From assembly GCA_046329805.1 (NCBI GenBank), contig JAXLUA010000001.1:86542-150541 (forward strand): 64,000 nt of DNA. Reading direction: 5' to 3'. The notes below the pieces were generated by a model, which made no database searches, was not told the DNA's origin, and worked only from the letters and a program-made list of their open reading frames with translations. Origin of the DNA: Chitinophagales bacterium (GTDB taxonomy: Bacteria; Bacteroidota; Bacteroidia; Chitinophagales; JADIYW01). A program made the translations under genes and the position numbers. Positions 9,958-61,149 of the stretch are shown here, one piece after another; the first letter of the stretch is position 1; every line of letters starts with the position of its first letter.

Positions 9958-9989
9958 TCGTATAATTGTAAATATTAAACAACATTATT

Positions 9990-10364: not shown

Positions 10365-10492
10365 ATTCTCTTTTTTTCATAAAGCTTCTTAGTTGTAGCA
10401 ACCTCATTTTGGGGTTGCTATTACATTTACACATTAAACAACATTAACTTAAATTGTAGGTTTAACAGAAACTCCTTATTTTTGTGTGACTT

Positions 10493-12418: not shown

Positions 12419-12463
12419 ATAATAAAACAATGAAATAATGAATTCATTCTCTTGAAAAAGATT

Positions 12464-12523
12464 AATTCATAATTCATAATTCATAATTCATAATTCATAA
12501 TTCATAATTCATAATTCATAATT
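12464..12523. repeat. heptanucleotide microsatellite (AATTCAT) x 8.6
   Basis: Perfect 7-bp periodicity read directly from the sequence. Units start at 12464, 12471, ... 12513. The array ends 7 nt before the infC start. Confidence 0.95.
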
Positions 12524-12530
12524 TAAAAGA

Positions 12531-41800: not shown

Positions 41801-41878
41801 GGGCGCATAGCTCAGCTGGTTCAGAGCATCTGCCTTACAAGCAGGGGGTCCGCGGTTCGAACCCGTGTGCGCCCACCA
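41801..41878 (+). tRNA. tRNA-Val (anticodon TAC), CCA encoded
   Basis: Cloverleaf read by hand. Acceptor GGGCGCA/TGCGCCC, D-arm GCTC...GAGC, anticodon stem TCTGC/GCAGG with loop CTTACAA, T-arm CGCGG-TTCGAAC-CCGTG, discriminator A, then CCA. Confidence 0.95.
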
Positions 41879-41885
41879 CATAATC

Positions 41886-41920
41886 AAGCACTTAGGTTAA
41901 AAACTAAGTGCTTTTTTATT
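41886..41920 (+). terminator. Rho-independent terminator after tRNA-Val
   Basis: aagcacttag (41886-41895) pairs with ctaagtgctt (41903-41912) and is followed by a T-run. Confidence 0.7.
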
Positions 41921-42007
41921 TTATTGCAAGTATTTCGCAAGTAAAAGACTGGTAGCCCATAGAGTCACTTATTAGATTTTACAATTATTTCGTATCTTTC
42001 TTCTACC

Positions 42008-42292
42008 ATGATAACTAATGAAATAATCTGCTTAGACAACCCTGCTTTTGAGAAATTAATAGACCGGGTGGTGTTGTACATTAAAGAAACACACGACTTA
42101 AAAGGGAAAGAGGAACTTTGGATTACACCAGAGGAAGCAAAAAAGAAATTAAACATTTCAAGTGACACCACATTGATGCATTTGAGAAATCAAGGAAAGA
42201 TTCGTTATACGCAACCAATGCGTAAACTTATCCTCTATGATCGACTTTCTATTGAAGAATATTTACAAGAAAACGCAAAAGATACCTTTTAA
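42008..42292 (+). CDS. excisionase-family helix-turn-helix DNA-binding protein
   Basis: 94 aa. The C-terminal half (WITPEEAKKKLNISSDTTLMHLRNQGKIRYTQPMRKLILYDRLSIEEYL) matches the HTH_17/excisionase-type pattern common at the ends of Bacteroidota mobile elements. Confidence 0.65.
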   Translation: MITNEIICLDNPAFEKLIDRVVLYIKETHDLKGKEELWITPEEAKKKLNISSDTTLMHLRNQGKIRYTQPMRKLILYDRLSIEEYLQENAKDTF

Positions 42293-42294
42293 TT

Positions 42295-42534
42295 ATGGAA
42301 CAGGAAATAAATGAAGACAGAGTAGCCAAAGGCTTTAATGATGGCTTTTTAATCAGTCAACACGATGCGGATTTGGCAAATGACCTCAAAGGAAAAATAC
42401 AACAATCTACCGATGAATATATAATCGGTTTTCAGAAAGGATTGGTTGAATTGGATAAAGAGAAGAAACTTACGGATGAGTTTAATAAAATTCGTGAGCA
42501 AGGAAATGAATTGGAAAAGGATATAGAGCGATAA
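42295..42534 (+). CDS. hypothetical small acidic protein
   Basis: 79-aa ORF that starts 3 nt after the HTH gene stop, which suggests translational coupling. No recognisable motif. Confidence 0.4.
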   Translation: MEQEINEDRVAKGFNDGFLISQHDADLANDLKGKIQQSTDEYIIGFQKGLVELDKEKKLTDEFNKIREQGNELEKDIER

Positions 42535-42597: not shown

Positions 42598-43983
42598 ATG
42601 CAACATTTAGACATTTTTGAATTTAATGAACATAAACCTTTTTTAAATAGGAGTTTTGATAAATTGTTAGATTCTTTGCAGTATGACATAGATTTTATAT
42701 CAGAAACAAAAGATATTAATGACGAGTCAGGGTATTGTGCTTTAATAAAAAAATTATATTATAGAAATAGAATTTCTGATTCAATTATTGTTTGTAAAAG
42801 GTGCTTAAGAGATTACAAGGATTCATATACAGCACATTTATATTTAGCAATGTGTTTCTGGGAATTTGAAGATCGTGAGAATGCTGCTTTGTTACTTGCA
42901 TTCGCATTACAGGCTAATACAAATACCGAAAATAAGATAATCTCTGATTTTATTAGGACAATCAAGATAGAACTTCCTGTATTTGATGCACTTGTGCCTG
43001 TTAAATCAGATATACAATTTACTTCTGTTGAAATTTCAGAAACATTTTTAATACATGGTTTCAAAAAGGAAAATAATGATGAAAGAGTGCGTCTATTTTA
43101 TCTTCTAATGGGTTGTGAACTAAATCCAAAGAATGCAGAAGCACTTATACAGTTGAGTTCTAGTTATATTAATAATTCTCAGTTTGTAGAAGCAATTCAT
43201 CCAATATTCAAGGCACTAGAAAATACAAATAATACTACAGCACATTCTAATTTATTTACATTACTTGGTATAATATACAAACTGTTTGATTTTACATTCT
43301 TTTCAAAGATATGTTTTAATCATTCGATAAAGTTAATACCGAATAATAAAATTGCACTACATCTTCTTAAAGATGAGGCTGATGATTTGTCTTCTATTGT
43401 AATGAAGACCAAAGATATTGTTTATTATAAATTTCTAAACCCTTATTTTTATTCAGGGCTATTGTTTTCTCAAAATTCAAGACTGGCAATTCAAACTGTC
43501 GCATACATTTTCAATTCTAATATTGAGCGGTATAATTTGAACATTATTACAACACTATCTGCCATATTAGAAAATGAATTTAAAGAGACAATCTTTAAAC
43601 ATATGATTGGTTGTACAACTGAATTTAATGAGAGAAAGTATAATAATTTACCTTTGCAAATTATAAGAGATTGCCTAACTAGAAATCCAAAGAATCTTCT
43701 TACGGGCAAAACAAAGATTAGATATAACAAAGAAATTGGATTACAAACTCATATTGCTAATTATTTTAATTGTCAAAGTAGTATGCTTGAAGAAATTGGA
43801 AATATTGTGCATACTATTATTCCTATAAGAAATAATGTTACTCATGGGACAGTTATAAAAACCAGAGATGTTTATATTTTTCTTGAATTTTCAAAGTTAC
43901 TACTACTTAGATTCAAGTTGCAAATGCAACTTTTTGCAGAATACAAAGTAAAGGTTAAAAAAATCAAAGCAGCAGACAAATAA
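42598..43983 (+). CDS. TPR + C-terminal HEPN-like domain protein (paralog 1), 3' end replaced by IS30 sequence
   Basis: Clear paralogy to 45958-47328 (IIVCKRCLRDY/LIVCRKCIQDF, NPYFY, NIITTLSAILENEFKE/NIVTTLSSIFETELKD). TPR-like segments are present (CELNPKNAEALIQLSSSY...). An Rx4H motif IRNNVTHG lies at 43828-43845. The last 24 codons (from 43909) are read from the IS30 left inverted repeat. Confidence 0.6.
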   Translation: MQHLDIFEFNEHKPFLNRSFDKLLDSLQYDIDFISETKDINDESGYCALIKKLYYRNRISDSIIVCKRCLRDYKDSYTAHLYLAMCFWEFEDRENAALLLAFALQANTNTENKIISDFIRTIKIELPVFDALVPVKSDIQFTSVEISETFLIHGFKKENNDERVRLFYLLMGCELNPKNAEALIQLSSSYINNSQFVEAIHPIFKALENTNNTTAHSNLFTLLGIIYKLFDFTFFSKICFNHSIKLIPNNKIALHLLKDEADDLSSIVMKTKDIVYYKFLNPYFYSGLLFSQNSRLAIQTVAYIFNSNIERYNLNIITTLSAILENEFKETIFKHMIGCTTEFNERKYNNLPLQIIRDCLTRNPKNLLTGKTKIRYNKEIGLQTHIANYFNCQSSMLEEIGNIVHTIIPIRNNVTHGTVIKTRDVYIFLEFSKLLLLRFKLQMQLFAEYKVKVKKIKAADK

Positions 43984-45025
43984 ATGTTCTACTGCTTTGA
44001 GAAGAAAGATAATCATTATTTTGTTCTGTACTAAAAGCGCATCATAATGGCACACCTAACTTCACAACAAAGATACACAATAGAACAACTTCTAAAAGCT
44101 AAAAAATCACAACAATATATTGCCGATATTATTGGCAAAGACAAAAGCGTAGTAAGTAGAGAAATCAAACGCAATAGCATGTACAATGGTATTTATAAAT
44201 CAGATAATGCACAATCTTATTATCTTTTTAACCGGGAAAAATCTAGGCGTAAAAGCAAATGGACACTTACATTACAGGAGGAAATCATAAAAACCCTAAA
44301 AGAAGATAAAAGCCCTGAGCAGGTAGTGGGTATTCGTAAAAAAAATAAACAAGACACCGTATCTGTTGAAAGTATTTACACCTTTATTTGGCAGGATAAA
44401 AAGAATGGTGGGAGTCTTTATACCCATTTGCGCAATGGAGCTAAAAGATACAGAAAACGAGGTAATTACAAGGACAATAGAGGTATTGTCAAAGACAAAG
44501 TGATGATTGTTGAACGACCAGAAATAGTAGCTAAAAAAGAACGAGTTGGGGATGTAGAAGTTGATTTAGTAATAGGCGCAAATCATCAACACGCACTACT
44601 TACTATTGTAGATAGAAGTACAGGATTTGCTTGGATAAGAAAACTAGAAAGTAAAAATGCAACAGCGGTAAGCACTCAAATTATTGATGCGCTAAGACCG
44701 CATAAGCACTGGATAAGAACCATTACCTCAGACAATGGAAAAGAATTTGCAAATCATAAAACAATAGCTACAGCCTTAGAAATAGATTATTATTTTGCCA
44801 ATCCATACCACAGTTGGGAAAGAGGTTGTAATGAAAACTACAACCGATTGGTAAGACAATATTTTCCTAAAAAATCAGACTTTACAATTATTACTAAACA
44901 ACAAGTTCAAGAGGTAGAAAACAAACTAAACCAAAGAGAACGAAAACGATTAGATTTTGAAAATCCAATCAACTATATTTACAAAAAATTATTAACCCAA
45001 AAAGTTGCATTTGCAACTTGAATCT
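43909..45025 (+). mobile_element. IS30-family insertion sequence (1117 bp)
   Basis: Perfect 28-bp terminal inverted repeats: agattcaagttgcaaatgcaactttttg at 43909-43936 is the reverse complement of 44998-45025. They enclose a single transposase ORF. Confidence 0.9.
44047..45021 (+). CDS. IS30-family DDE transposase
   Basis: N-terminal HTH (QQRYTIEQLLKAKKSQQYIADIIGKDKSVVSREIKRN). DDE region VDLVIG...TSDNGKEF...PYHSWERGCNENYNRLVRQYFPK. Confidence 0.9.
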   Translation: MAHLTSQQRYTIEQLLKAKKSQQYIADIIGKDKSVVSREIKRNSMYNGIYKSDNAQSYYLFNREKSRRKSKWTLTLQEEIIKTLKEDKSPEQVVGIRKKNKQDTVSVESIYTFIWQDKKNGGSLYTHLRNGAKRYRKRGNYKDNRGIVKDKVMIVERPEIVAKKERVGDVEVDLVIGANHQHALLTIVDRSTGFAWIRKLESKNATAVSTQIIDALRPHKHWIRTITSDNGKEFANHKTIATALEIDYYFANPYHSWERGCNENYNRLVRQYFPKKSDFTIITKQQVQEVENKLNQRERKRLDFENPINYIYKKLLTQKVAFAT

Positions 45026-45957: not shown

Positions 45958-47328
45958 ATGTCAGGTAAGCAACATTGGATTTCGGAACAATATTTGGAGT
46001 TGTCATTAACCCTTGAAAAGGATCATGAATTTAATAACATAATTATTCTACCCAATACGGAAGCAAAACTTATTCAATTAGCATTAAAATTAATTAACTG
46101 GAAACGAAAAGATGAAGCTTTAATTGTATGTAGAAAATGCATCCAAGACTTTCCAGAATGTGGCGAAGGTTACATTGTCACAGCTCAGATATTTTGGGAA
46201 TATAGAGATGAGAAAAGGGTTGTTTTTCTGCTTAAGTGTGCACTTGTTTGTATAGTATCAAATTCAAAAGAACCATCTATTTCGACAGAAGATCTATCAG
46301 ATGTTTTATCCTTATGGCCAGTTTCGTCAGAAATTGACAATACAGATATTGAACTTTCAGATACGTTTTCTTTATTAGGCGAACGTTATAATAATTTGAA
46401 ATATTATAGTGCCTCAACTATTTTTTTACGAGCAAGTTGTTTATTAGATAAATCAAACAGTTATTCGCATTCACGATTGGCTTATGCCTTACTTGAAGAT
46501 GATAAATTGATTGAAGCCATTCCTGTTATAAATGCTGGATTACTTTTAAATCCAAAAGACGATAAGTTATTGTCTTACTTAGGAATTGTATTTAAGACTT
46601 TCCATTATGAGCATTTTTCTTTTTTAGTTTTTATAAAGGCAGCATCCATTCAATTAAAAGATGAATCTATTCTGTTAAAAAAGAGAGAGCCTTCTGAAAT
46701 AGATACAATGTATGAACTCTTAAAAGATGACGTGCTCGAAAAATATTCAAACCCTTATTTTTATTTTCCAATCTTATCTTTAGAATCTTCACGTAAGTCC
46801 TTTGAGTCAGTAGCATATCTTTTAAACGCAAATAATTTAACGTATGCAATAAATATAGTTACTACACTATCTTCTATATTTGAAACAGAACTTAAAGATG
46901 TTTTATTTCAGTATTTTAAAAATGAAATCAACGCAACTGAAGGATTTAATTATGATAACCTTACAATGGGTACTATGCTAAGATTACTTCATCCACATCC
47001 TGAAAATTACATAACTTTAAAAGTGAAAACAAATAATCACAACAATGCTATATTACTAACACCGTTAATGAATTTTTATAAATGTAATAAAAATCAGATT
47101 ACTGAAATTGCAAATATAATCCAGACAATAATAGATATCAGAAACAACATTACACATGGTCAGATGATAAATGAAATAGAATTACAACAGTTTACTTCAT
47201 TTGTCAAATTAGCATTTATTTTACTTACAAATTTACGTGTGATGAAAACTACAGGAATTTTTTCAGAAATAAAGTTTGCAGTTAATAATAACTCATATCC
47301 ATTTAAAATAAAAATAGAGATTATATAA
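45958..47328 (+). CDS. TPR + C-terminal HEPN-like domain protein (paralog 2, intact)
   Basis: 456 aa. TPR-like segments (LLLNPKDDKLLSYLGIVFKTF...). The C-terminal ~190 aa carry a conserved acidic helix (SSIFETELKD) and the Rx4H motif IRNNITHG at 47140-47157. Confidence 0.6.
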   Translation: MSGKQHWISEQYLELSLTLEKDHEFNNIIILPNTEAKLIQLALKLINWKRKDEALIVCRKCIQDFPECGEGYIVTAQIFWEYRDEKRVVFLLKCALVCIVSNSKEPSISTEDLSDVLSLWPVSSEIDNTDIELSDTFSLLGERYNNLKYYSASTIFLRASCLLDKSNSYSHSRLAYALLEDDKLIEAIPVINAGLLLNPKDDKLLSYLGIVFKTFHYEHFSFLVFIKAASIQLKDESILLKKREPSEIDTMYELLKDDVLEKYSNPYFYFPILSLESSRKSFESVAYLLNANNLTYAINIVTTLSSIFETELKDVLFQYFKNEINATEGFNYDNLTMGTMLRLLHPHPENYITLKVKTNNHNNAILLTPLMNFYKCNKNQITEIANIIQTIIDIRNNITHGQMINEIELQQFTSFVKLAFILLTNLRVMKTTGIFSEIKFAVNNNSYPFKIKIEII

Positions 47329-47347: not shown

Positions 47348-48793
47348 CTATTTTATGTTGTAATTTTTCAATTTACTCTTCAATGTATTTGCAGTAATAC
47401 CTAAAACAATTCTGGTTCTTTCTAAATTCTTATTACACATTTCATATACATACCTACAATGCCGAAGTTCAATATCTTTTAGTAATAACGAATGTTCTTT
47501 GCTTGGGTTAAGTATTCTATCAGGTAAATTTTCTAACAATACAGTATCGTGTGCTTCGGCAAAGATTCTATCTACCAAGTTTTCCATCTCTCTGATATTA
47601 CCCGGAAATAGATACTCTAATATACGTTTTTTTATATCAAGTCTTATTTTAGGCTCTTTTTTATTAAATTTTACCTTACTCTTTTGCCATAAGAAATTAA
47701 AGACTTCTTCTTTTTCTTTTAATGTATATTCTTTCAAAGAGGGAAGATATAAATCAGTAACAGCAAGACGATAATATAGATCAGGTCGGAACTCTTTTTT
47801 GTTGCACATATCATATAGGTTTCTGTTAGTTGCAGAAATAACACGTACATCAACAATCTCAGGCTTACGGCTACCAACACGTAAAATTTCCTTTTTCTGA
47901 GGTTGTAATGCTCTTAATAAGCATTGTTGCATATATGGAGTAATATCACCTATTTCATCTAAAAAGATCGTACCTCCATCTGCTTCGTGAAATAAGCCTG
48001 TAGTTCTTTCATTAGCACCTGTAAAAGCACCTTTCTCATAACCAAACAACCTACTTTCTAAGAGTTCATTGCTTAATGCAGAACAATTTATTGCAACAAA
48101 TGTACCTTTTGCACGAGGCGAATTATCATGAATATACTTAGCCAACAATTCTTTCCCTGATCCTGTTTCACCACCAATCAATACAGATACGCAATCGGCT
48201 TCTGCTATCTTCTTTGCCTTGTCGTAAGTCTTTTTGAGGGTTTGAGTAATGACTATATTCTGTTGTTTCTCATTTAAAGATTGTGGGGATTCTTGCCTGA
48301 TGATTAATGATGATGTATAGTCAGATTTTTCAAGTTCAATCCATACTTGCTCTGATTCTTTATTTTTACTATGCTCTGGTCTTCGCATTTGAAACAAGCG
48401 GGTTTTAAGACCAAGTGTTTGATGTGCGAGATACCACGCAACCTGCATCGTGGGAGTGCCAGGCGATACAAAAATATCAATGCTATGTTCTTTATTACTT
48501 AGTAATAAAGTATTCACTTTGGCACTAATTTCTTTAATATCTATGACATCATTTATTGACATTGCTCTCTCAATTATTTTATGTCCTTTATATTCCTTAC
48601 GCAAATAGGTTACCAAAAATTGATACTTAGTATCATCTGATGTGTTTTTCTTACTGCTTAACAGTAGATGATAGTCATAGTCTGTATAGAAGTGTTTATG
48701 TAATAAACTATTGGGTCCGTTAGGATTTTCAGCAGATTTATCTTTGATAAAATCATTTTCTGTCGCTACCCAAGAGATAAGAATTTTGCCCAT
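47348..48793 (-). CDS. RtcR-like sigma-54-dependent transcriptional activator (CARF-like N-domain + AAA+ + HTH)
   Basis: The central bEBP core shows Walker A GETGSGKE, the sigma-54 contact loop EKGAFTGA, Walker B IFLDEIG, and an R-finger region. A C-terminal HTH is present. The N-terminal ~150 aa ([13 protein letters not shown]..., [20 protein letters not shown]..., RLFQMRRPE) parallel the RtcR N-domain as I remember it (ITTGTHVAQICWFLLAE...RLIQSSPP). It is not a receiver, PAS or GAF domain. Confidence 0.8.
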
Positions 48794-48900
48794 AACAAGA
48801 GAGTTTATTTCATATTAAATATAATCATTTTTTGATGTGCAGAATAAAAATTTGATTATTTCCTTTACACCAATTAGCATTTCATATACTGTTCTTCATT

Positions 48901-48916
48901 TGGCATTTTGGTTGCA
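48901..48916 (+). promoter_or_regulatory. sigma-54 (-24/-12) promoter, TGGCAT-N5-TTGCA
   Basis: tggcat tttgg ttgca read directly. GG lies at 48902-48903 and GC at 48914-48915, with exact GG-N10-GC spacing. It is 108 bp from, and divergent to, the bEBP start codon, and points toward 49466. Confidence 0.7.
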
Positions 48917-48997
48917 CAAGAGGTATAAAAGTTCTTTATAGTATTGACAATAAAAAATACCGAATACATCGTATTCGGCAAAATAAGTTTAACAATT

Positions 48998-49029
48998 ATA
49001 TGCGACAAGGGCGACACCATAGTCAGGGA
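48998..49029 (+). repeat. 32-bp conserved core repeat, copy 1
   Basis: atatgcgacaagggcgacaccatagtcaggga is identical to 49130-49161. It contains the internal direct repeat GCGACA-N3-GCGACA. Confidence 0.9.
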
Positions 49030-49129
49030 AATTATTGAATCACTCATACAGTCTTCTGAACTATATGCGACCAATGCAATGAAGCAGTCTGGGTATTCAA
49101 CGATATACTCATATTATTTAACAGAAGAA

Positions 49130-49161
49130 ATATGCGACAAGGGCGACACCATAGTCAGGGA
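49130..49161 (+). repeat. 32-bp conserved core repeat, copy 2
   Basis: Identical to copy 1, 132 bp downstream. The flanks are related but diverged with indels (TTTAACA...core...ATTATT(G/A)A). A third partial ATATGCGAC lies at 49063-49071. Confidence 0.9.
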
Positions 49162-49465
49162 TATACATGGATTATTAAGTCCACAATTTTCTCATATAGT
49201 AAAAGAACCTATTTGAGTAATAGTATACACGAATTAAAATATTTGTCAAGTGTTTTTAGATGTGTTTAAAGTAGCCTAAAAAGCCTTATAAATTATGAAC
49301 GAAAATCTACAACAACAATTTACAAGAGGTAATACCGAAGAATTATCGAACAGAATTTACTTACAAGATGATTCGTGATATACTCGAATCATTAGTGTTT
49401 CTATTGGTAAATAGTCGCACAAAATCTCTTTTCATAGTTCTTTTTAAAAATTAAAAATTTTAGCA

Positions 49466-50602
49466 ATGAAAAATAATCAATTAACAACGACTACATTCCA
49501 GTCAAACGATATTGATCTGGACGAAAAAATGTCTAAACTCAAAGATGAGTTAGATACACTCCATCATCAGTTTTTAGAGAAAGTTCCTTTTGATGCTTCG
49601 AGCCTTGCATATAGTAATCTGCCAACACAGGATGCAGATAAAATAGAGCCATACATCACTAAGATAAAAGGGTTTTATTCTCGCTTACGCAACGACATAC
49701 CACAAAAAGTACAAGGTTCTTTACAACTTGTGTATGGTGCTTTTGATATGACACCTTTGGATGAACAGTTAAAGAAACTGGAACAACAGAAAATAATTAC
49801 TGAAAGGGAAAAGAATCATCTCAAAGATGAATTGAAACAACGACCCAAGCCACGAGATATTAGTCAGTACAAATGGACCAAGGTGTTGTTAGGATTTCTT
49901 GCATTCTTTGATGTAATGTCTATGATTGCATCATTCATGGGTACGTTTCAAGAAAACTACCTCTTCGCCATTGTTCTCGGAATTACTATAGGTCTTTCAC
50001 TTATCTACTTCACTAAATCATTGGTATTGCACATTAGAGATACACCTCAAACAAAAACCTCACTTGCCGTTAAATGGGCATCGGTTATTTTACTCTTACT
50101 CATTTCGATATTCATAGGAGGACTACGATATGTTCAATCCACCGATGATGGCACAGTCCATCAGGCAACACTGTATTCCAACCCTTTTGTATTCATTGTC
50201 TTTAACCTGCTCATAGTAGCGACAACAGCGTTCATCGTGTACACGAAAGTACCAAGCGAGAAAGATATACAGGAATATTTGGCGTATAAAAAATGTGAAG
50301 ATGAAATTATTCAGAAAGAGCAAGAGATAAAACAGATTGATAAGGATATGGAGGATATAAAACTAAAGAAGTCCATTACTGCCAAATATCGTTTACAACT
50401 TCGCCACTATCAGAAAATCTTTTATGAACGCATACAGGCGATGTATGAACAGGCAGTAGGCGAGTTTATTATCGCCAATTTAAAAGGGCGCACCGATGGC
50501 AAGAACCCTCTTTGCTTTACGCTCCCACTTGCTCCGCTTAGCATTTCAAATGAAGATGAAATAATTGATAACGTATTAAAACACCACAACGATGAAAACT
50601 AA
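49466..50602 (+). CDS. hypothetical membrane protein (coiled-coil / 4 TM / coiled-coil)
   Basis: 378 aa. Four hydrophobic helices (VLLGFLAFFDVMSMIASFM, LFAIVLGITIGLSLIYF, WASVILLLLISIFIGGL, FVFIVFNLLIVATTAFIVY) are flanked by charged heptad-like regions. It is the first long ORF downstream of the sigma-54 promoter. Confidence 0.6.
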   Translation: MKNNQLTTTTFQSNDIDLDEKMSKLKDELDTLHHQFLEKVPFDASSLAYSNLPTQDADKIEPYITKIKGFYSRLRNDIPQKVQGSLQLVYGAFDMTPLDEQLKKLEQQKIITEREKNHLKDELKQRPKPRDISQYKWTKVLLGFLAFFDVMSMIASFMGTFQENYLFAIVLGITIGLSLIYFTKSLVLHIRDTPQTKTSLAVKWASVILLLLISIFIGGLRYVQSTDDGTVHQATLYSNPFVFIVFNLLIVATTAFIVYTKVPSEKDIQEYLAYKKCEDEIIQKEQEIKQIDKDMEDIKLKKSITAKYRLQLRHYQKIFYERIQAMYEQAVGEFIIANLKGRTDGKNPLCFTLPLAPLSISNEDEIIDNVLKHHNDEN

Positions 50603-51323
50603 AATCATACTCGGCATAGGCTTCTTAGCCCTACTCATTAGCATGGGTATATATTTCCTGATACCAATTTTTAAAACCCAAATACATGGTAGCGAAATAA
50701 CCGTCTTCATTGACAAGACCGATGTACAGAAAGAACAATTGAAAGTGAATGATATTGTTTCGCTACTCGATATAGATAAACATATATGGCAACGAAATAA
50801 AGTGGAACTGCAAACGCTGTCTAATTTTCAATATAATAATGTTCAGGAAAAAGAATTGCCCTTTGCTTTTTTCTTGGTATCTAATCCGAAGAAACGAAAG
50901 AAAGACATACAACAATTCAAGACAGAGTTAGATTCAGCTTTACAATCCATATACGACATAGATAGCGGACGTACACGATCCTCAATATATGAGCCAATAG
51001 TAAGAACGCTTAATGCCGTATCACAATCAAAGGCGCACAAAAAGATACTAATTGTTCAATCTGATTTACAAGAAAACACGCAAATATTTAGTGTGTACAG
51101 AGAAAGTGATTATCTCCTATTACAGAGAAACCGGGAACAAATTATTGAGCGATTTACCAAAGTACTTGCACTTCAAAACATACAGGATATTGAGGTATAT
51201 CTGATTTATCAACCCAAATCAGATGCCGACAATGACAGGTTTATTCTTATGGCAAACCTGTTTAAGGAAATACTGGAACAGAAAGGGGCAATCGTTCATA
51301 TTGGTTCAAATATAGTCATTTAA
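50592..51323 (+). CDS. hypothetical membrane-anchored protein (possible vWA/Rossmann-like alpha/beta domain)
   Basis: 243 aa with an N-terminal TM (IILGIGFLALLISMGIYFLIPIF). An 11-bp overlap with the upstream ORF indicates translational coupling. The beta-alpha pattern ITVFIDKTD...KKILIVQSDLQEN...IEVYLIYQP is only suggestive. Confidence 0.55.
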   Translation: MKTKIILGIGFLALLISMGIYFLIPIFKTQIHGSEITVFIDKTDVQKEQLKVNDIVSLLDIDKHIWQRNKVELQTLSNFQYNNVQEKELPFAFFLVSNPKKRKKDIQQFKTELDSALQSIYDIDSGRTRSSIYEPIVRTLNAVSQSKAHKKILIVQSDLQENTQIFSVYRESDYLLLQRNREQIIERFTKVLALQNIQDIEVYLIYQPKSDADNDRFILMANLFKEILEQKGAIVHIGSNIVI

Positions 51324-51335
51324 AATAGGTTGCCA

Positions 51336-51485
51336 TGAAGTCAGATAGTGTATTTATAGACTTGCTTTTTGCTGTACTAAAAACAATAGGCAGAACGTTC
51401 TTATTAACGCTTTACCTCGCAGGTCGCATCATTCAATTCATCATCATACATCTAAATCTATGGATCGAAACATTACTCAAATAAT
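51336..51485 (+). CDS. possible small membrane protein (49 aa), not in the ORF track
   Basis: ATG at 51336. Translation MKSDSVFIDLLFAVLKTIGRTFLLTLYLAGRIIQFIIIHLNLWIETLLK is mostly hydrophobic. It overlaps the T4CP start by 26 nt in another frame. Confidence 0.3.
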
Positions 51486-52923
51486 GGAAGAAATAGGCGA
51501 ACAGGTATCGCATTTCATCCGCAACTATGTAATTCCAATCATACAGGAATTCTTTTACACCGTATCAAGAGGAATAGACGGTATAGTAGAAGTATTGTCG
51601 TCAAAGAATCATTCATATAAAGCCGAGTTTATAACCTATGACGAAATACTAATGAAGTCTAATAGAGGTTTCTGTTTAGATGGCAGAAACTGCCTTGCTC
51701 GTTCAGAACCAAATGTATTGGTATGCGCTCCGTCAGGTGCAGGAAAGTCAACAGTCATTAGTATTCCATCACTTTTGAAAATTGATGGTTCTGTGATTTG
51801 CAATGATCCATCTATGGAACAATACCATAAGACGGCAGGGTATTTAATTTCAAAAGGATATAATGTTGAAGTGCTTAATTTCGCACAAATAACCAACACC
51901 TTTTACAACCCCATTTCGCAAATACATAATACAGCCGATGCACAAAAGATAGCAGGGATGTTAGTGAGAAATGTGTTACAGAACCCGGGCGATCCGTTTT
52001 GGAATTTAAGTGCGACAAACTTAATCGCACTATCCATACGCATACTGTTACGACATGAGAAACAGTATAGAAACTTCGCTAATGTTCGCCATCTCATACA
52101 ACTCCTTACCTTTGAGCCAAAATCAGTAGATGCGTTAGTCGCACAAACCAATGCCCAGGATATTATTGCAGACTACAAAAGTTTCATCGCACAAGACACC
52201 AAACTTCGCACTTCTATCATAGCAACGGCCATGAGTGCTTTACAAATCTTTGCCGATCCTATTGTCGCCAAAGTAACAAGCAAAGATACCTTAGATTTAG
52301 AATCTATACGAAAGCGAAAAACAGTCATATTCATTCACTCATCAACAAGTGACATGAAATATTACTCCACACTTATAAGCATCTTCTTTGAGCAGACTAC
52401 TAAAGTGATTATGTCTAAACTGCCTGAAAAAGAAGATAACTATGTATTCTTTATTTTAGATGAGTTGAGCAGTATGTATCTGCCATCGCTTGAAATAGTC
52501 ATAGCCAATATTCGTAAGTATAAAGGTTCACTACTTTGTATTCTGCAATCGTTCCAACAGTTAATCAATATATACGGCAGAGAACAAGCAAATGCTATTA
52601 GAATGAACTGTTTTGCTAAGGTGTATATGGCAGGGTTAGATCATACCACCGCCTCTGAATTAAGCCAACAGTTGGGTAAATATGAGTGGATTGATGAAGA
52701 AACAGGCAAAAAGCACATCAGGGAATTAGCAACACCGGATGAAGTAAGAATGTTGCCTCGTGATAAAGCAATACTTATTTGTGGTAATTACAATCCTATG
52801 AAACTTACACTTACACCCTATTACAACAATCCATTTCTTAAACTGCGAACAGAAATACCGATACCATATACCAATACTGCCATAGATGAAACGCCTGTTG
52901 AACTCATAACCAATGATGAATAA
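51460..52923 (+). CDS. type IV secretion coupling protein (TraG/TraD/VirD4 family ATPase)
   Basis: Walker A VCAPSGAGKST. Walker B VFFILDELSSM. 487 aa. It is adjacent to relaxase genes. No N-terminal TM segment is present in this ORF. Confidence 0.8.
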   Translation: MDRNITQIMEEIGEQVSHFIRNYVIPIIQEFFYTVSRGIDGIVEVLSSKNHSYKAEFITYDEILMKSNRGFCLDGRNCLARSEPNVLVCAPSGAGKSTVISIPSLLKIDGSVICNDPSMEQYHKTAGYLISKGYNVEVLNFAQITNTFYNPISQIHNTADAQKIAGMLVRNVLQNPGDPFWNLSATNLIALSIRILLRHEKQYRNFANVRHLIQLLTFEPKSVDALVAQTNAQDIIADYKSFIAQDTKLRTSIIATAMSALQIFADPIVAKVTSKDTLDLESIRKRKTVIFIHSSTSDMKYYSTLISIFFEQTTKVIMSKLPEKEDNYVFFILDELSSMYLPSLEIVIANIRKYKGSLLCILQSFQQLINIYGREQANAIRMNCFAKVYMAGLDHTTASELSQQLGKYEWIDEETGKKHIRELATPDEVRMLPRDKAILICGNYNPMKLTLTPYYNNPFLKLRTEIPIPYTNTAIDETPVELITNDE

Positions 52924-52926
52924 CAT

Positions 52927-53499
52927 ATGCGGAAAATAAGACGAAATACGAAGTTGTGGCTTTATTTGTATCAATCAGGCGTTCTTGCATCTAATAATGA
53001 AACCTTGATTAAACAAAAGGTACATGAGTACTGGAAACTCTATGATAAGGAACGGAAGAAGCGTAAACGTGCGATTAAAACAGAATTTACGATATCCTTT
53101 ACCAAAGAAGAAGTAAAAGCGTTAAAATACGTTGCGTTGAATGTAGGATTAACAATACCTGACTACATCAAACAGTTGGTATATACCAATATAAAAACAC
53201 ATCCATTCACACCATACGCACAAACGATTAAGCATATTGAACAACTACTTATCCATTACAAGAACAAGATAAACGACATTGCCAAGAAAGAGGTAAAGAA
53301 CTTCTTAGGTATGAGTAAAAATTATGATCTACTTACTGCTGCTATTACAGAGATACAGACAACTATTGCTCAAACGCTTACACAAACACCAACGTTGCAA
53401 GAAACCATAAAAACAGCCTTAATGAATAACCCACTGTTTATACAAACACTCCGCCAACTTATGCAATCGTATAATGATACTCAAAAGCCTAACTCGTAA
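52927..53499 (+). CDS. relaxosome accessory protein (MobC/ribbon-helix-helix-like)
   Basis: 190 aa. The segment KRKRAIKTEFTISFTKEEVKALKYVALNVGLTIPDYIKQLV fits the RHH pattern of mobilisation accessory proteins. It overlaps the relaxase start. Confidence 0.5.
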   Translation: MRKIRRNTKLWLYLYQSGVLASNNETLIKQKVHEYWKLYDKERKKRKRAIKTEFTISFTKEEVKALKYVALNVGLTIPDYIKQLVYTNIKTHPFTPYAQTIKHIEQLLIHYKNKINDIAKKEVKNFLGMSKNYDLLTAAITEIQTTIAQTLTQTPTLQETIKTALMNNPLFIQTLRQLMQSYNDTQKPNS

Positions 53500-54373
53500 G
53501 ACAGCATCATTTAAACAGCTACTCGAATATATGGTGCATGATAAAGACCGCTACAAAGATGAACGTGGCGAATCTTTTGTAGTGCAACATAATGTAAAAG
53601 GCAAGACGATACCATCATGGGTAAAACAGTTTGAACAGAATGAAACCAACAGATTATATCAACGCTCAAATTCTGTAAAGGTATGTCACGATATTTTGAG
53701 TTGGAGTAATAAAGACACAAGTAATATGAGTTTGGAAAAGATGCAGGATATGGCAGAGAAGTATATTGAACTTCGCAATGAAAATGCCTTGTGGATTGCT
53801 GTACCACATATAGATAAAGACCACTTTCATGTTCATTTTGCTATGAGTGGAGTTGAAATTGAAACAGGGAAGTCATCACGAGTATCACGAGAACAGTTCA
53901 AAGAGATTAAGAAAGAATTACAGCAGTATCAAATTGAAAAATATCCTGAACTTACTCACTCCATTGTTGACCATGAAAAGAGCAAGAAGAAAGAACCTAT
54001 ATCAGAAAAAGAATACCAATTAACGAAACGTACTAAACAACCGAGCGAAAGGGAACGGACTAAAGAAGTACTTACTAAACTATATAGACAATCCAATTCT
54101 AAAGAAGATTTTTATAAACGCATACAAGATAATGGATTAAAGATGTACGAACGTGGTGGTAAGAACTATGGCATTGAGGGTGACAGGAAAATGCGATTTT
54201 CTACATTAGGTTTTGATGATAAAAAGATAGATACATTAGATGCTACTTTGGAATTTGAGAAATTACGGAATGATACGGAAGAAAAAGAGAAAGATAAATA
54301 CGATGATGATGGAAATGATACTGATAATAAAGATCACAGTAATGACACTGAATTAGATATGGATAAGAATTAA
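53474..54373 (+). CDS. relaxase/mobilisation nuclease (MobA/VirD2-type)
   Basis: The N-terminus MILKSLTRKTASFKQLLEYMVHDKDR is typical of the relaxase family. The histidine triad motif is VPHIDKDHFHVHFAMS. The tail is acidic and low-complexity. Confidence 0.8.
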   Translation: MILKSLTRKTASFKQLLEYMVHDKDRYKDERGESFVVQHNVKGKTIPSWVKQFEQNETNRLYQRSNSVKVCHDILSWSNKDTSNMSLEKMQDMAEKYIELRNENALWIAVPHIDKDHFHVHFAMSGVEIETGKSSRVSREQFKEIKKELQQYQIEKYPELTHSIVDHEKSKKKEPISEKEYQLTKRTKQPSERERTKEVLTKLYRQSNSKEDFYKRIQDNGLKMYERGGKNYGIEGDRKMRFSTLGFDDKKIDTLDATLEFEKLRNDTEEKEKDKYDDDGNDTDNKDHSNDTELDMDKN

Positions 54374-54659
54374 GTCATATCGTGACAGGTTTGTAGTATT
54401 AATAAATGGGAGAAATATAACGTAATTTATTTTTAAAATAAAATACTGCAAAACAAATGAGTATATATTTATAAATATCACTATGTGATATTGAGTAACA
54501 AATTTATGATAGCAGTATGTAAATAAGCATATAAATACTTGTGTATCTTAAATTCTTTCATTTATTTTGTATTGAACTAAGTTGTCTGCAATCCCTATTA
54601 GCGGTTTGTGGGCATTTTTTTTAGGTAGTAATTGATTATACTCATTTTAAATTATTTAT

Positions 54660-57600
54660 ATGCGGAAACAAACTTTAATAAAACTAATACTCACACTCGT
54701 GATCTTGTTGAATAAAATACATAGTTATGCACAAAGTACAAGTTATCAGATGTTATATAATGATGGCACTTTTACAAAGAGTATAAATACCGGTTTGCAG
54801 GTCGGTGTTGTTGATGGACAGCAAGGTACTACACAGACGGGAGCTGCAACATATACCATTCCAATAAAAGTAACTCCGGGAATAAATGGAATGGAACCTA
54901 AATTAGCAATTACATACAGTTCACAAAATGGAAATGGTTTATTAGGTGTAGGGTGGAACTTAAGTGGTCTAAGTTCAATAACATTAGATAATAGGAATAT
55001 ATATTATGATGGAAAGACTGCACCAATAAATATTGCACCAACTGTGTCGAGTGATGGGACAGCTTTTTCATTGGATGGCATGAGATTAATTGGGAGAAGT
55101 GGTACATATGGTTGGGCTGGATCAACTTATTCCACAGAATTAGAGAATTATTCTTTAATTACTGCTCAAGGTGTTGCTAATGCAAGTTGTGGTTGTCCTT
55201 TAAATTTTAATATTAAAACAAAAGATGGATTAAGTATGGATTATGGTGATAATGGAAGCAATCCAGATGCTCTCATACTTTCATATGGTAATTCATACCC
55301 AATAATGTGGCGTTTAAAAAGAACAACAGATAACAATGGAAATTACATAGATTATAAGTATTCTATTACGACTGACGGTGAATCTAAAATTGATGAGATT
55401 AATTATACAGGAAACTCTACAAATAATGTGGCAACTCCATTTGCCAAAGTAAAATTTATCTATTCTGAACGTTCAGATCCAAATATAATGTATGTAGTTG
55501 GTTCCAATTCAACGAATGCAACGACATTAAAGAGTAAATGGCTGTTAGATAAAATAATAATAACTTCCGATGCACAAACGGTAAAAACATACAAGTTTAA
55601 TTATGCCTTTGATGGTATTTATTCTGTATTACAAGAAGTTAAAGAAATTGGGTCTGATAATACAGAATTAAACTCTACCATTCTTAGGTACGGAAATCCA
55701 AAAGAATTGGATGCAGCAAACTCTAATGTTGTTTCAACAACAACTAATAATATTAGTACTACTAATTCGGATAATTTCACAGGTGATTTTGACGGAGATG
55801 GGTACACTGATATTTTAACTGCTTATTACACATCTCCTACATTGCGACAATATACAAGTATCAAAATATTTAGAAAGATTCCCAATACAAACAATTTTCA
55901 AGATATATATACTTATAATTTACCATCAACGATTAATATTTCTGGTACTAATTACCCGGCTTTTAGATATATAAACGTAGCTGATTATGATGGGGATGGG
56001 AAAAGTGATATTATGTTTGATAACTATTATTCTGCAAGTATTCCCAATTCATCTGCTTACGTTTTTATTTCTGGGAAGTATTCAAATACGGCTTTAATGA
56101 GCACGTGTACAAATAGTAGTTATGGTTTTAGTGTTAATGAATACAATAACTTAACAAACCTTGGTGTTTTTGGAAGCTGTTCAGCTAGTATTTATGGGGC
56201 TACTGAATCTGCATCAACGACAGTGCGAAGCCAGTTTATTAATGGAGATTTTGACGGAGATGGAGCAACCGATATTATTACAACATTATTCAATGTTGGT
56301 GTTAATGCCCCTTCTCAAGGAAACAGAACATTTATTACAAGAATTAATACTAATGAATTTTATTCTCCAATTAAATTAAATTCGACAGGTAGCTATTCCG
56401 ATCTTGGTGACCTTTGCGCTACTTATAAGCCTGTTGCAGTGGCTGATTTTGATGGGGACGGTAAAGACGAAATATTATTAGAAAATGGAATGATTCTCTT
56501 TTTTAGAAAAAATAGTAGTAATCAATGGGAATGCGGTACCATTATGTCGCCTATTAGTTCTACAGACAAGGTTTATTGTGGTGATTTTAATGGAGATGGA
56601 AAGACTGATATTTTAAGAGGTAGCAAATACGCTTGGGGTTTTAATGATTGGAAAGTATTTTATAGTAAAGGATATGGTTTTGATTCCTTATCAATGTCTA
56701 TGCAAAGTATGGCTTTTGACCAGACGTTAGATTATAAGAATATGAAGATTATTATTGGCGATTTTAATGGAGATGGAAAAGCTGATATAATACAACAGGT
56801 AATTCCAATGATACAGGTTTCACAAACCTATTCCGCACCAGCAAATTATTCCAATTTACATATTTGCTATAGTAATGGAGTTAATTTTACTTACAGAGAT
56901 ATTACTATAAATAACAGTAATACCAATCTATACATACCCAAGATATTTGGTGATTTTGATGGTGATGGAGCTACGGATATTATATGTAGATCGGATATAT
57001 CGCATACTATAAATAGTAAACCATATATGTTCGAGAGTTTTGGAAATCAACAAAAAGAGAGATATTTACGGAAAATTATTGATGGATTTAATCGAAAAAC
57101 AGAATTTACATATAGCCCACTTACAATAGGGTTGCCATTTTACAACAATGGAAATGGACCAACATCTTATTATCTTACTACAAACTCATTGAAAATACCA
57201 ATATATGCAGTTTCAAATGTCATAACTCCTGATGGTATCGGCGGGAATATTACCACTTCATATACATATACAGATGTAGTTATGGGTAAATATCGGAAAG
57301 GATTTTTTGGATTCTCTAAGATTAATTCTCTAAACTCATTGACTAACATCAATACAGAAATTCTTTATGAAAATAATGTAAATGTTACTAATAATACAAT
57401 TACTTCTCTAATCCCAGTTAGTATTAAAGCAACGCTAAATGGCAATGTCATCTCACAAAATACATATTCATATGCATATACATTTTTAGGCAATAAAAGA
57501 TTTAAGACTGAACTTTCAAATAGCACAAGTATTGATAACGTGAATGGAAAGACTTTGAATTCTAACTATGTTTACGACGGAAATGGAAATGTTATAAATC

Positions 57601-60600
57601 AAACAATTAATAACACAGGTATTGAAGTATTTACAATAAATAGACCAGTGGCTGATTTCGTAATAAGCGGGACAGGAACTGTGCCCTCATTGCCAAAAAC
57701 AATAATTGAGTCAACAACAAGAGGTAGTACAACTTTTAGTAAGACGACCAAATTAAACTATGATTCAAAAGGAAGGATAATTAGCAAAATTGATTTCGAT
57801 GGTACAACAAACAAATTAACCACTACTTTTGGATATGATAATTTTGGAAATATTATAACCACTTCATCATCGGGATTTACTACTGGTGTTGGTATTGCAA
57901 CAATTACTAAAAATACTCCATTTAGTTTTGATGGCAGATACTTGCAATCTTCTGAGATACAAAATGTAAAAGGTGTTGAAAATATAGATGCATATGATAA
58001 TAAATGGCAGACGCCCACCTCTATAACCAATGCTTCAACTTATAGGCATACTCAAATAACCTATGATGCTTTTGGAAGAACTGTTAATTTAAAGCCAACT
58101 ATGCCTGGTGGACCGACAACTTATGATATTAATACCAAATATGATTGGAGTACATTGCCGAATAGTATCTATATGGTAACCCAAACCCCTTATGGTATGT
58201 CTGAAACAAGGCAATACTATGATATGTTTAATCGTTTAGTTAGAGAAGAAAAAACAGTAAATGGTAAGACAAAGTTTACCCAAAATACTTATGACGCAAA
58301 AGGGGATATTATAAATATTAAAACTAATGATGCAGATGGGGGTACAATAGAAACAATAAATACCTATGATTTATATCATAGGCTACTCACTAGTTCACCT
58401 ACTATTGGGGCTGCATCTGCTAATACTTATACTGTTTCCTCTAATGGATATACTGTTTCTAGTTCTACTACAGGATATCCATTAAAAATTAGTAAAATAG
58501 ATGCAACAGGAAAAACAACAGAAGTTACCGAAACTGCTGGAACCAATTCGGTTACAAATATATATTCTTATCATGCTAATGGCAGATTATTAAAAGTAAC
58601 TCAGTCAGGAAAAGATTTAGTTGTTTGTGAATACGATGCTAATGGTAATCAAACTAAATTAACCGATATTGATGCCGGTTCAACTTTGTATGAGTATGAT
58701 GCTTTTAGGAATATTACAAAGCAGACCGATGGTAAAAATAATATAACTGAATCCACCTATGACCTTTCTGCAAGACCATCAACAAAGTCTGTTACGGATG
58801 GTGCTAACCCAGGAAATTATCAGACGGTCGATTTGTATAGTTATTATCCTGCAAATTCTAGTGGAGAAGGGTTAGTAAAACAAATTCAACATTTTAATTA
58901 TGCAGAATCAGGTGCTAATATTATTCAGAATTATGAGTATGATGAATATGATAGATTAAAAAAAGAGACTAAAAATTTTGAAGGAACTAATTTTGTCACT
59001 CAATATGAATACGGCGATTATGGTAGGTTAAAAAGCGTAACATATCCAAGTGCTACAGGTATTAACCCTGTTAAAATTTCATATACAACAACTGCTGATG
59101 GTTATGTAACTAATGTGAGTGCTTTAAATGCTGGAGTTTCAAAAACAATTTTAAATACTTCAACAGCTAATAACTATAATGCATTCGACCAGTTAAAATC
59201 CTATTCATTAGGCAATGGATTAAGTAGTCAAACAGATTACAATAAATTGGGTATGCCTACAAGGTATCTGACAAACTCTGTATTTCTTTTTATACCATAC
59301 AGATTACAAGATTTGCAGATGCCAATTTGGGATTTAAATAATGGTAATTTGATGAAAAGAATTGATGCATCAAACAATAACAGACCAACTACAACTGAAG
59401 TTTTTACGTATGATGGTTTTAATAGATTAACTAGTTCTACAGTCGGGACAACAACACTTGGAGTTGGATATGATGCTATTGGCAATATAACAAATAAGTT
59501 TGACGCAGGGACAGAGTATCTTTACAATTCGCCTAAGATACATGCAGTAGAAAACATAAAAAGCAAAATTTATGATTATCCGTTGCCAATTTATCCTCAA
59601 TATCCAAGCAATAACGCCCCTAATGAACGCAGTGATATAAGTGGTGATAAACAGCAAATCATTTATAACGGAATTAACCAGCCATCTTTAATAATAGAAG
59701 GTGGAGGAGTTGGAAGTAATCTTATAAAAAAATTAAAGTATATCTATGATATTGATGGAAATAGAATTAAGAGTATATACACAGAAGAGAATAGTTTAGG
59801 TGTTATTGATGCAAGTAAAACTATAAATCGTTATTATTTGGGTAACTATGAATTTGAAAAGGATGCTAATAACAACATTACTCGCCAACTTAATTATATC
59901 AGTACGCCTGTTGGCTTAACATCAATTTTAGATAAAGAATCTGGACAGGCTGATGCTTATTTCTTTACATATACAGACCACTTAGGTAGCGTTGTTACAG
60001 TTACGGATCAAAATGCCGTACCAGTAGTTTATCAGAGTTTTGATGCATGGGGAAGACCTAGAAGTACATACGACTGGAGTTACAATAATATATCTGCACC
60101 ACCAGCTGCTTTAAACGTAGGCTTCACCGGGCACGAAATGTTATCTAAGTTTGACTTGATAAATATGAACGGTAGATTATATGATCCAAAAGTCGGACGT
60201 ATGTTAGCATCTGATAATTATGTACATGATGCCTTTAATACACAGCATTTTAATCGATATAGTTATGTTTGGAATAATCCTTTAAAATATATAGATATCA
60301 ATGGAGAAGATGGAGATGGTTTTTCTTTTTATATTCCATCTAGTCCAATAAATTGGGACTTCTCAAATATTAACCTTACAATTCCAAGCCCTCAACTCCC
60401 AACAATATATAATCTTGATTATTACAACACGCCACTATTTCCTATTTCTACATTTGGAGGATATAGCTCAAATGCTTGGGGTAATACCGATAATTTTGTT
60501 TGGACTACAAATCAAGCCATAGCTACAGCCAATTCAGTAGTTGGAGATGCTAATGCTGTCAATGCAAGTTTAATGACATACATGAATGGATATACAACAA

Positions 60601-61139
60601 ATGGAGCTGCTGCAACAACTGAATTAGCGACAACAATAAGTTGGGGAGAAATAGGAACAAGTATAGGTGAAGGATTAGCAGCATTGGGTACATTTGCAAC
60701 TTCTGTAACATGGGGGGCTATAGGTATATTAACTAGTGGTGGTAGTTCTGAGCGAAGAGTAGATGATTATGCACCAGCACAGCCAATTACCATTGCGCCA
60801 CCAATTAGTACGACAGGTAATCCTCAATTATATGAACAATATGCATTAGTTGCTACAAGAACAGGTTTATATCCTACAGCATCCTGGGGTGTTCCATTTA
60901 GGGCAGATTTGGCACCTAAAAAGCTAATGTTTGCCGGGGAAGTGTGGAAATATGGAACTACAAAAAATGGAGTTGGCAGATATACAAATTCATTTTATAC
61001 TACCACGGGAATGGGTTTAGATTATGTGACACAATTTTCAGGCACCTTATTACAAGTAAGAGCAGAAGAAGCAACTAAGATTATAAATTATTATTTTTGG
61101 TATGGCGATTTGCCACCGGGAAATAAATGCTTACATTAA
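54660..61139 (+). CDS. SpvB/FG-GAP/RHS-repeat polymorphic toxin (TcB-TcC-like fusion) with variable C-terminal domain
   Basis: Signal peptide. SpvB-like N-terminus ([47 protein letters not shown]). Seven FG-GAP/VCBS motifs (GDFDGDGxTDI) lie at ~55780-56990. YD repeats ([30 protein letters not shown]...) are present. The RHS core ends at [16 protein letters not shown]...[19 protein letters not shown] (60171-60308). Confidence 0.9.
   Translation: [2159 protein letters not shown]
60309..61136 (+). other. C-terminal variable (toxin) region of the RHS protein
   Basis: ~276 aa after the RHS core boundary. It includes a Gly/Ala/Thr-rich hydrophobic stretch ([36 protein letters not shown]) and a terminal ~120-aa globular part with [20 protein letters not shown]. 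Confidence 0.6.
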
Positions 61140-61149
61140 AAGAAATATT

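Follow-up and report, generated by a model that had tools for sequence, protein, structure and literature searches.

Type IV coupling proteins (T4CPs) that lack a transmembrane (TM) domain work with small membrane proteins, as exemplified by TraJ and TraI of pIP501, while TraG-type T4CPs require an adjacent multi-TM partner such as TraJ of R27 (PMC7434980). Only a few mobilisable plasmids and replicons encode a T4CP of their own (PMC7434980). The Bacteroidetes mobilisable elements NBU1/NBU2, Tn4555, Tn4399 and cLV25 encode a relaxase, in some cases joined by one accessory factor, and rely on the VirD4 protein of the helper; other mobilisable elements encode proteins of the mating pore, including TraG/TraH/TraN of SGI1 and TrbJ/K/L of the IncP-island (PMC5704250). 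The present analysis concerns a 64,000-nucleotide stretch of DNA from a Chitinophagales bacterium (assembly GCA_046329805.1, contig JAXLUA010000001.1, positions 86,542 to 150,541 of the forward strand), referred to as the window, and within it two overlapping genes encoding membrane proteins of 378 and 243 amino acids (aa). Both are annotated as 'hypothetical protein' in the source Chitinophagales metagenome-assembled genome (MAG). A reading made from the sequence alone had treated them as the apparent output of a nearby sigma-54 promoter, either as effectors that perturb the membrane or as transfer-related proteins of an island. Comparison with related elements indicates that the pair very probably forms a core part of a mobilisation module that brings its own TM-less T4CP.

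The gene pair within a mobilisation operon

The two open reading frames (ORFs) were confirmed on the plus strand, together with their 11-nt overlap at 50592-50602 (ATGAAAACTAA); the coordinates of all features are collected in Table 1. The identical 11-nt overlap is present in L001, L004 and L010, handles of this kind denoting loci of related elements. In the 378-aa protein, a Kyte-Doolittle hydropathy scan and the secondary structure of an AlphaFold2 (AF2) model agree on four hydrophobic helices at residues ~139-262, with AF2 helices H134-161, H165-192, H197-224 and H240-261. This TM block is preceded by a helical N-terminal region of ~130 residues and followed by a helical C-terminal region of ~115 residues, in keeping with the four TM helices between long helical regions of the sequence-only reading. 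The 243-aa protein consists of a single N-terminal hydrophobic helix followed by the order b1-a1-b2-b3-a2-a3-b4-a4-b5-a5-b6 in the AF2 model, which bears out the N-terminal TM segment and alpha/beta domain proposed for it.

The distribution of charges suggests a cytoplasmic location for the two helical domains of the 378-aa protein and an extracytoplasmic one for the alpha/beta domain of its 243-aa partner, an arrangement that fits the natural fusion of the two proteins described below. The extracytoplasmic assignment is further suggested by lipoprotein or Sec signals on relatives of the 243-aa protein. The genes for the 378-aa and 243-aa proteins, and for a 49-aa protein downstream, are under purifying selection. 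The ratio of nonsynonymous to synonymous substitution rates (dN/dS) is 0.03-0.16 for the pair against three or four relatives and 0.1-0.26 for the 49-aa ORF, with dS near saturation in both comparisons. Both members of the pair are therefore real coding genes.

The 136-bp gap that had been noted between the pair and the T4CP gene is occupied by this conserved 49-aa hydrophobic ORF. The genes run in the order 378-aa protein, 243-aa protein, 49-aa protein, T4CP, accessory protein and relaxase. Neighbouring genes overlap by 11 nt at the first junction, 25 nt at the third and 26 nt at the fifth, and are separated by 11 nt at the second and 3 nt at the fourth. Given these tight junctions, the six genes are therefore taken as one operon. 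Pfam assigns VirD4 nucleotide-binding, all-alpha and TraG-D_C regions to the T4CP, and its identity to every T4CP in the plasmid collection is <30%. A hydropathy scan found no hydrophobic segment, and so no N-terminal TM domain, along its 487 aa; the alignment to the NCBIfam VirD4 model begins ~56 residues short at the N-terminus.

All three genes that precede the T4CP gene encode membrane proteins, with four hydrophobic segments in the 378-aa protein and one or two in the 49-aa protein, and the membrane-protein gene adjacent to the T4CP gene is co-oriented with it. The 49-aa protein may provide the TM segment that is absent from the T4CP. The idea that its ORF is a frameshifted N-terminus of the T4CP was rejected, as an ORF of 49-56 aa is separate in every relative.

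Genomic context was compared across 14 distinct elements, in which the 243-aa protein is from 100% down to 28% identical to that of the window. The gene table was built by phmmer/hmmsearch, and gene order was read wherever the contig was long enough. Module order is constant in all 14: a 4-TM protein (~360-378 aa), an anchored alpha/beta protein (~240 aa), a hydrophobic protein (49-56 aa, detected in closer relatives), the T4CP, an accessory protein (150-190 aa) and the relaxase. Identity between elements is 28-60% for both families of the pair. In L026, from a Chitinophagales MAG, the two proteins are fused as P0122 (578 aa) in an identical operon context, with a lipobox-like segment joining the two halves. 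The pair thus consists of conserved backbone genes whose order is constant and which are either fused or coupled in translation, and they occur independently of the bacterial enhancer-binding protein (bEBP) gene that lies upstream in the window. Of the two roles first offered, transfer-related proteins of the island is the one that stood, since the pair lies directly upstream of the T4CP, accessory and relaxase genes wherever the contig allows this to be seen. In 10 of the 13 elements with a visible upstream region, L022 included, the homologues lie in mobilisation operons and show no association with bEBP or HEPN genes.

Close homologues of the two proteins are few, with 4 and 10 clusters in a set of 5.8 billion proteins. 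When 1.84 billion representatives were searched with a profile, however, 1,063 relatives of the 243-aa protein were recovered at E<=1e-3, almost all of them 230-250 aa long; the count refers to representative clusters at 50% identity. No homologue of the 243-aa protein was found in the plasmid collection and no related locus in scans of viral contigs. In metagenome scans, the CARF domain of the bEBP gave no locus and the 243-aa protein a single short one; a genome-contig scan gave 2 loci.

Neither the window proteins nor 51 and 7 diverse family members reached a Pfam, NCBIfam, PHROG or PADLOC model; the scans returned only sub-threshold, inconsistent TM-protein noise (Frag1, SLC52 and similar). 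Searched against PDB sequences, the profile of the 243-aa family gave no meaningful match, and a Foldseek search with the AF2 model of the 378-aa protein gave only generic coiled coils (E>0.1).

The 243-aa protein had been called faintly vWA-like, and several results point the same way. The strand and helix order of its AF2 model, which has a predicted local distance difference test (pLDDT) score of 65, fits a Rossmann-like vWA topology. Its best Foldseek matches are vWA domains (TFIIH p44, Sec24, integrin I-domains and ANTXR), although these matches are weak, with E-values of 1.7e-4 to 2e-2, a template modelling score of ~0.35 and a root-mean-square deviation of 8-9 A. The family has invariant D41/T43 and near-invariant S130 and D158/E161, and these five residues are placed on three loops equivalent to those of the vWA metal-ion-dependent adhesion site (MIDAS). 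On the other side, the canonical MIDAS motif DxSxS...T...D is replaced in the family by a variant, D41-x-T43-[DE], and the vWA profiles PF00092 and PF13519 matched neither the window protein nor any of the 51 family members. Alignment of the family profile by hhalign was not significant against the vWA protein of L020 (E 0.11) or against the integrin alpha2 I-domain (E 0.13), the latter with an approximate query sequence. Given the missing profile match, the non-canonical motif and the insignificant hhalign results, membership of the vWA family is not claimed; the domain may be vWA-like in fold, an assignment made from the model at low confidence.

Signal-transduction cassettes and the leader upstream of the operon

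The bEBP gene upstream of the pair encodes an RtcR-like protein with a full-length match to the PADLOC model RtcR_PspF2--CARF_AAA_HTH (E 1.9e-120). A sigma-54 -24/-12-like element lies 108 bp from its start codon. Taken alone, this site is not significant, with at least one match in 34 of 100 shuffles. The promoter is nevertheless regarded as real on sequence grounds because it lies near the bEBP start, has palindromes upstream and keeps its GG/GC positions in L020 and L018: the pattern is exact in L020/L021, and GG-N10-GC is kept in the more diverged L018. An equivalent palindrome pair in L018 (GTCAATTTTTGATA / GTCAAATTTTGATA) has a spacing of 20 bp.

The bEBP gene and the sigma-54 motif occur in 3 of the 13 elements (the window, L018/L019 and L020/L021), and the ten others have neither. 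In L018 and L020 (652-5571 and 648-5850, minus strand), the bEBP gene heads a set encoding a 210-255-aa protein and vWA, protein-kinase-like and PP2C-like proteins (a TerY-P-like triad). Genes for TPR-HEPN proteins and an IS30-family transposase stand beside the bEBP gene only in the window, not in L018/L020. The same slot in L001, L004, L014, L022 and L025 (for example, L004 3968-8737) holds a histidine-kinase-like protein (PF06580/HATPase_c, 947-993 aa) accompanied by a receiver-domain protein (307-327 aa) and a conserved ~125-aa protein, all co-directional with the operon. Some bEBP-less elements have almost nothing there. The slot upstream of the operon repeatedly holds signal-transduction cassettes.

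The boundary of this slot is visible in the DNA. Homology of the window to bEBP-less elements begins at 49354-49367, ~100 bp before the start of the 378-aa gene. In L022, where a histidine-kinase-like and receiver cassette takes the place of the bEBP, homology begins at 49435, 31 bp before the ATG, and operon DNA identity to the window is 94.7%. No remnants of the ~125-aa gene of the bEBP-less relatives were found in the window. By these sequence comparisons, the bEBP and its putative sigma-54 promoter are an exchangeable cassette and not part of the backbone.

The leader between promoter and operon spans 550 nt. The statement that no other long ORF lies between the promoter and the pair needs qualification: a 90-aa TTG-start ORF exists at 48944-49216, although L018/L020 do not conserve it, and no ORF in the leader is conserved among the three bEBP loci. 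No plus-strand intrinsic terminator was predicted in 48916-49466 or in the equivalent regions of L018/L020, and the only terminator predicted in 48700-54700 acts on the minus strand. The body of the leader (~235-270 bp) is unalignable among the three loci, and L020 has 66-bp repeats of its own. The minus-strand promoter-like site, this body and the terminator look like a convergent minus-strand unit of ~260 nt, extending over 48950-49250 in the window, 5735-6017 in L018 and 6015-6337 in L020. This unit could be a small RNA (sRNA) or an antisense gate.

Two further candidates in the leader were rejected. In a 27-aa ORF at 49296-49379, most changes are non-synonymous as judged by eye, and a structured RNA is not indicated, as the fold z-scores (-1.4 and -1.8) are unremarkable and Rfam found only the tRNA. 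The ~100 bp before the 378-aa start are more conserved across elements than the coding regions, as seen in an alignment of 10 elements, and are a candidate operator, 5' untranslated region (5'UTR) or origin of transfer (oriT).

With respect to transcription, read-through from upstream is possible in the bEBP-less relatives because all genes from HTH_17 to the relaxase are co-directional. In the bEBP loci, the cassette genes beside the operon are on the opposite strand, so a promoter within 48794-49465 (window coordinates) must serve the operon. That sigma-54 transcripts reach the operon is given slightly less than an even chance. In this lineage, the whole mobilisation operon may gain signal-dependent transcription from the cassette.

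Table 1. Coordinates of the operon, its upstream region and the left end of the element in the window
Feature	Coordinates	Strand	Evidence or remark
378-aa inner-membrane protein	49466-50602	+	Mobilisation operon gene 1; helical, probably cytoplasmic N- and C-domains around 4 TM helices
243-aa signal-anchored alpha/beta protein, predicted extracytoplasmic	50592-51323	+	vWA-like fold at low confidence; lipoprotein in some relatives
49-aa hydrophobic protein	51335-51484	+	In all close relatives; overlaps T4CP start by 25 nt
VirD4-type T4CP, 487 aa	51460-52923	+	PF02534 E 5.7e-63; PF10412 (TrwB_AAD_bind) E 1.8e-28; PF12696 (TraG-D_C) E 4.9e-20
190-aa putative relaxosome accessory protein	52927-53499	+	Conserved position; faint NikA-like match E 0.067
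MobA/VirD2-type relaxase	53474-54373	+	PF03432 E 5.9e-15; annotated relaxase in source MAG
Backbone leader, ~100 bp	49367-49465	+	Inverted repeat ATGATTCG-N9-CGAATCAT at 49368-49392; conserved in all elements
TTGACA-16-TATACT promoter-like site	49222-49249	-	Inside block 100% conserved in three bEBP loci
Variable body, ~66-bp periodic direct repeats	48998-49164		Three copies at 48998, 49063 and 49130
Hairpin + T-run, predicted intrinsic terminator for minus strand only	48958-48980	-	Kept in L020 6035-6015 and L018 5755-5735 (compensatory changes)
Sigma-54 -24/-12-like element TGGCATTTTGGTTGCA	48901-48916	+	Faces operon; sole match in window
Two TCA-N5/6-TGA-type palindromes ~20 bp apart	48824-48857		Upstream of sigma-54 site; resemble upstream activating sequences (UAS), putative function
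RtcR-like CARF-AAA+-HTH bEBP, cassette gene	47348-48793	-	PF00158 E 6.7e-62; NCBIfam RtcR E 3e-76, below cut-off
tRNA-Val(TAC), left junction of element	41801-41878	+	ARAGORN, Rfam
HTH_17/excisionase-like gene, 94 aa, backbone	42008-42292	+	PF12728 E 1.6e-7; at left end of related elements
79-aa backbone gene	42295-42534	+	Kept beside HTH_17 gene in relatives; no Pfam match

Proposed role of the membrane proteins and competing explanations

The explanation that best combines these observations, with a probability placed just above even, is that the pair belongs to the mobilisation operon and acts as a membrane anchor or adaptor of the T4CP. The 378-aa, 243-aa and 49-aa proteins would make up the membrane portion of the coupling apparatus and hold the TM-less T4CP ATPase at the inner membrane, and the periplasmic domain of the 243-aa protein would dock the T4CP onto the type IV secretion system (T4SS) of a helper conjugative element. 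The specific anchor or adaptor role, taken by itself, falls somewhat short of an even chance; since neither protein has homology to known partner proteins, this role is proposed from gene order, topology and analogy.

Several points weigh against the proposal. Among the families and structures searched, neither protein has sequence homology or confident structural homology to a known T4SS, T4CP-partner or exclusion protein, and confidence in the AF2 models is low (pLDDT 65). Neither a helper T4SS nor an integrase was seen in the window, and because of this mobilisation itself is inferred. The 378-aa homologue of L002 (= L003, L024; a Bacteroidota MAG) is split into 196 + 176 aa at 8888-10011 while the remaining genes of the module are intact. 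The split could be genuine or could reflect a pseudogene or a sequencing frameshift, and the 378-aa homologue may perhaps be dispensable in some elements.

The main competing explanation, which is considered unlikely, is an exclusion system in which the pair would block redundant entry of the same element, by analogy with TraS and TraT of the F plasmid. In F, TraS mediates entry exclusion and TraT is a surface-exclusion lipoprotein, and the genes are ordered traS-traT-traD(T4CP)-traI(relaxase). The window parallels this succession of inner-membrane protein, lipoprotein-like envelope protein, T4CP and relaxase; lipoprotein signals occur in some members of the 243-aa family, and both families diverge fast (28-60%), as exclusion specificity determinants often do. 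No homology to the F proteins was found, the window proteins and family members match no TraT or other exclusion family in Pfam/NCBIfam, and the window 243-aa protein has no lipobox. The ~245 residues of conserved, putatively cytoplasmic helical domains in the first protein and the fusion of the pair in one relative are atypical of exclusion proteins, and an exclusion role would leave the TM-less T4CP with no membrane partner except the 49-aa protein.

Remodelling of the mating pore is judged quite unlikely; here the proteins would replace or modify components of the helper T4SS, favouring transfer of their own element or evading exclusion by the helper, as in SGI1. Mobilisable elements that encode pore proteins are documented in SGI1 and the IncP-island (PMC5704250), the 243-aa domain is predicted to be periplasmic, and vWA-like folds typically serve in adhesion or in interactions between proteins. 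Neither protein shows homology to known mating-pair-formation families, and sequence data alone do not separate remodelling from the adaptor model.

The original suggestion, in which the pair serves the CARF-bEBP and sigma-54 promoter as their dedicated output and acts as membrane-perturbing, abortive-infection-type effectors of a defence module with the HEPN genes, is now highly improbable. What survives of it concerns the arrangement: the putative promoter faces the operon with UAS-like palindromes and an RtcR-like bEBP adjacent, no plus-strand terminator is predicted between promoter and genes, and this layout is seen in three loci. The comparative data appear to have largely refuted the effector role, since in 10 of 13 elements the pair is present and both the bEBP and the sigma-54 motif are absent, the pair is always tied to T4CP and relaxase genes, and the bEBP cassette ends ~100 bp upstream of the 378-aa gene. 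Moreover, HEPN and bEBP genes stand together in the window only, the vWA/protein-kinase/PP2C set replacing the former in L018/L020, and neither protein matched the defence library (PADLOC) or PHROG.

Alongside the anchor or adaptor proposal for the proteins, a sensor-triggered mode of mobilisation can be envisaged for the operon, although its probability is rated low. The CARF-bEBP would be wired to the transfer operon, and an RNA-damage or cyclic-nucleotide signal would act through sigma-54 to let the element leave a stressed or infected cell. Signals arising from, for example, the TPR-HEPN RNases of the island or from infection would bind the RtcR-like CARF domain. Sigma-54 transcription would then run through the leader into the genes for the 378-aa, 243-aa and 49-aa proteins, the T4CP and the relaxase, while the convergent minus-strand unit would gate leaky read-through. 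The upstream slot would represent a general plug-in site for sensory cassettes, whether CARF-bEBP or histidine-kinase-like plus receiver.

The element, its cargo and comparison with described systems

The element encodes its own relaxase and T4CP and has no mating-pore gene set, and no T4SS structural genes were found between tRNA-Val and the window end. It is best explained as an integrative mobilisable element beside tRNA-Val in a Chitinophagales genome. The sequence 3' of tRNA-Val (41874-41944) is common to the window, L001, L010, L020 and L022. No second copy of the tRNA 3' end was found in the window, and the island probably extends beyond position 64000. A tyrosine integrase adjoins the related L004 element.

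The island carries varied cargo. Two TPR + HEPN-like paralogues (461 and 456 aa; 42598-43983 and 45958-47328), whose HEPN matches are sub-threshold, flank an IS30-family transposase (HTH_38 + rve; 44047-45021) and a 246-aa minus-strand ORF with no family match. Directly after the relaxase gene lies a gene for a 2,159-aa SpvB/FG-GAP/TcdB_mid/RHS-repeat toxin (54660-61647), and a 181-aa ORF overlapping its end may encode an immunity protein. L014 and L015 have similar RHS cargo in the equivalent position. In L010, the relaxase gene is followed by a CBASS-like set (9517-12892) of a patatin phospholipase and a SMODS/DncV-like nucleotidyltransferase, so the element family therefore ferries defence systems. 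The cargo of L002 includes a KAP NTPase/PLD. Elsewhere in the window, positions 18001-22000 have a G+C content of 0.44-0.49 against a window average of ~0.34, with no Rfam match.

These results place two proteins annotated as hypothetical, and first taken for putative defence effectors, in the core of a mobilisation module. With ~1,060 clusters, the 243-aa family is large but has no Pfam or NCBIfam model, and its genomic role provides a handle for annotation. A defined role would likewise offer a handle for experiments on the docking of mobilisable elements to helper secretion systems. Given the cargo (HEPN, CBASS-like, RHS and KAP/PLD), the transfer biology of the element bears on the spread of defence and competition genes. 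If true, the sigma-54 link would put horizontal transfer under the control of a CARF sensor, a rare situation.

Comparison with described systems places the regulatory cassette beside RtcR and rtcBA, with which it shares an RtcR-like CARF-AAA+-HTH bEBP gene divergent from a putative sigma-54 promoter. It differs in having no rtcA or rtcB downstream; instead, the promoter is followed by the 550-nt leader with its apparent convergent minus-strand unit and then by the mobilisation operon.

The operon itself is of a known kind, the mobilisation module of an integrative mobilisable element, comprising DNA transfer and replication (Dtr) genes plus a T4CP. NBU1/NBU2, Tn4555, Tn4399 and cLV25 resemble the window element in being integrated beside a tRNA, in their MobA/VirD2-type relaxase and in having no mating-pore set, whereas the window family adds its own T4CP and three membrane proteins. 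A module with its own TM-less T4CP and three dedicated membrane proteins appears undescribed in Bacteroidota.

The closest parallels to this arrangement are TraJ + TraI of pIP501 and TraG-TraJ of R27. As in those systems, the window T4CP adjoins small or multi-TM membrane proteins, and it is TM-less like TraJ of pIP501. Pfam/NCBIfam scans of the window proteins revealed no T4SS family that would indicate a relationship. Relative to described TM-less T4CP systems, the new features are the number of partner genes, a sizeable domain predicted to be periplasmic, and protein families for which there is no curated model. In contrast to pIP501 and R27, the window has three partner genes, one of them with a putative periplasmic alpha/beta domain of ~210 residues; its host is a diderm member of the Bacteroidota, and the module resides on a mobilisable rather than a self-transmissible element.

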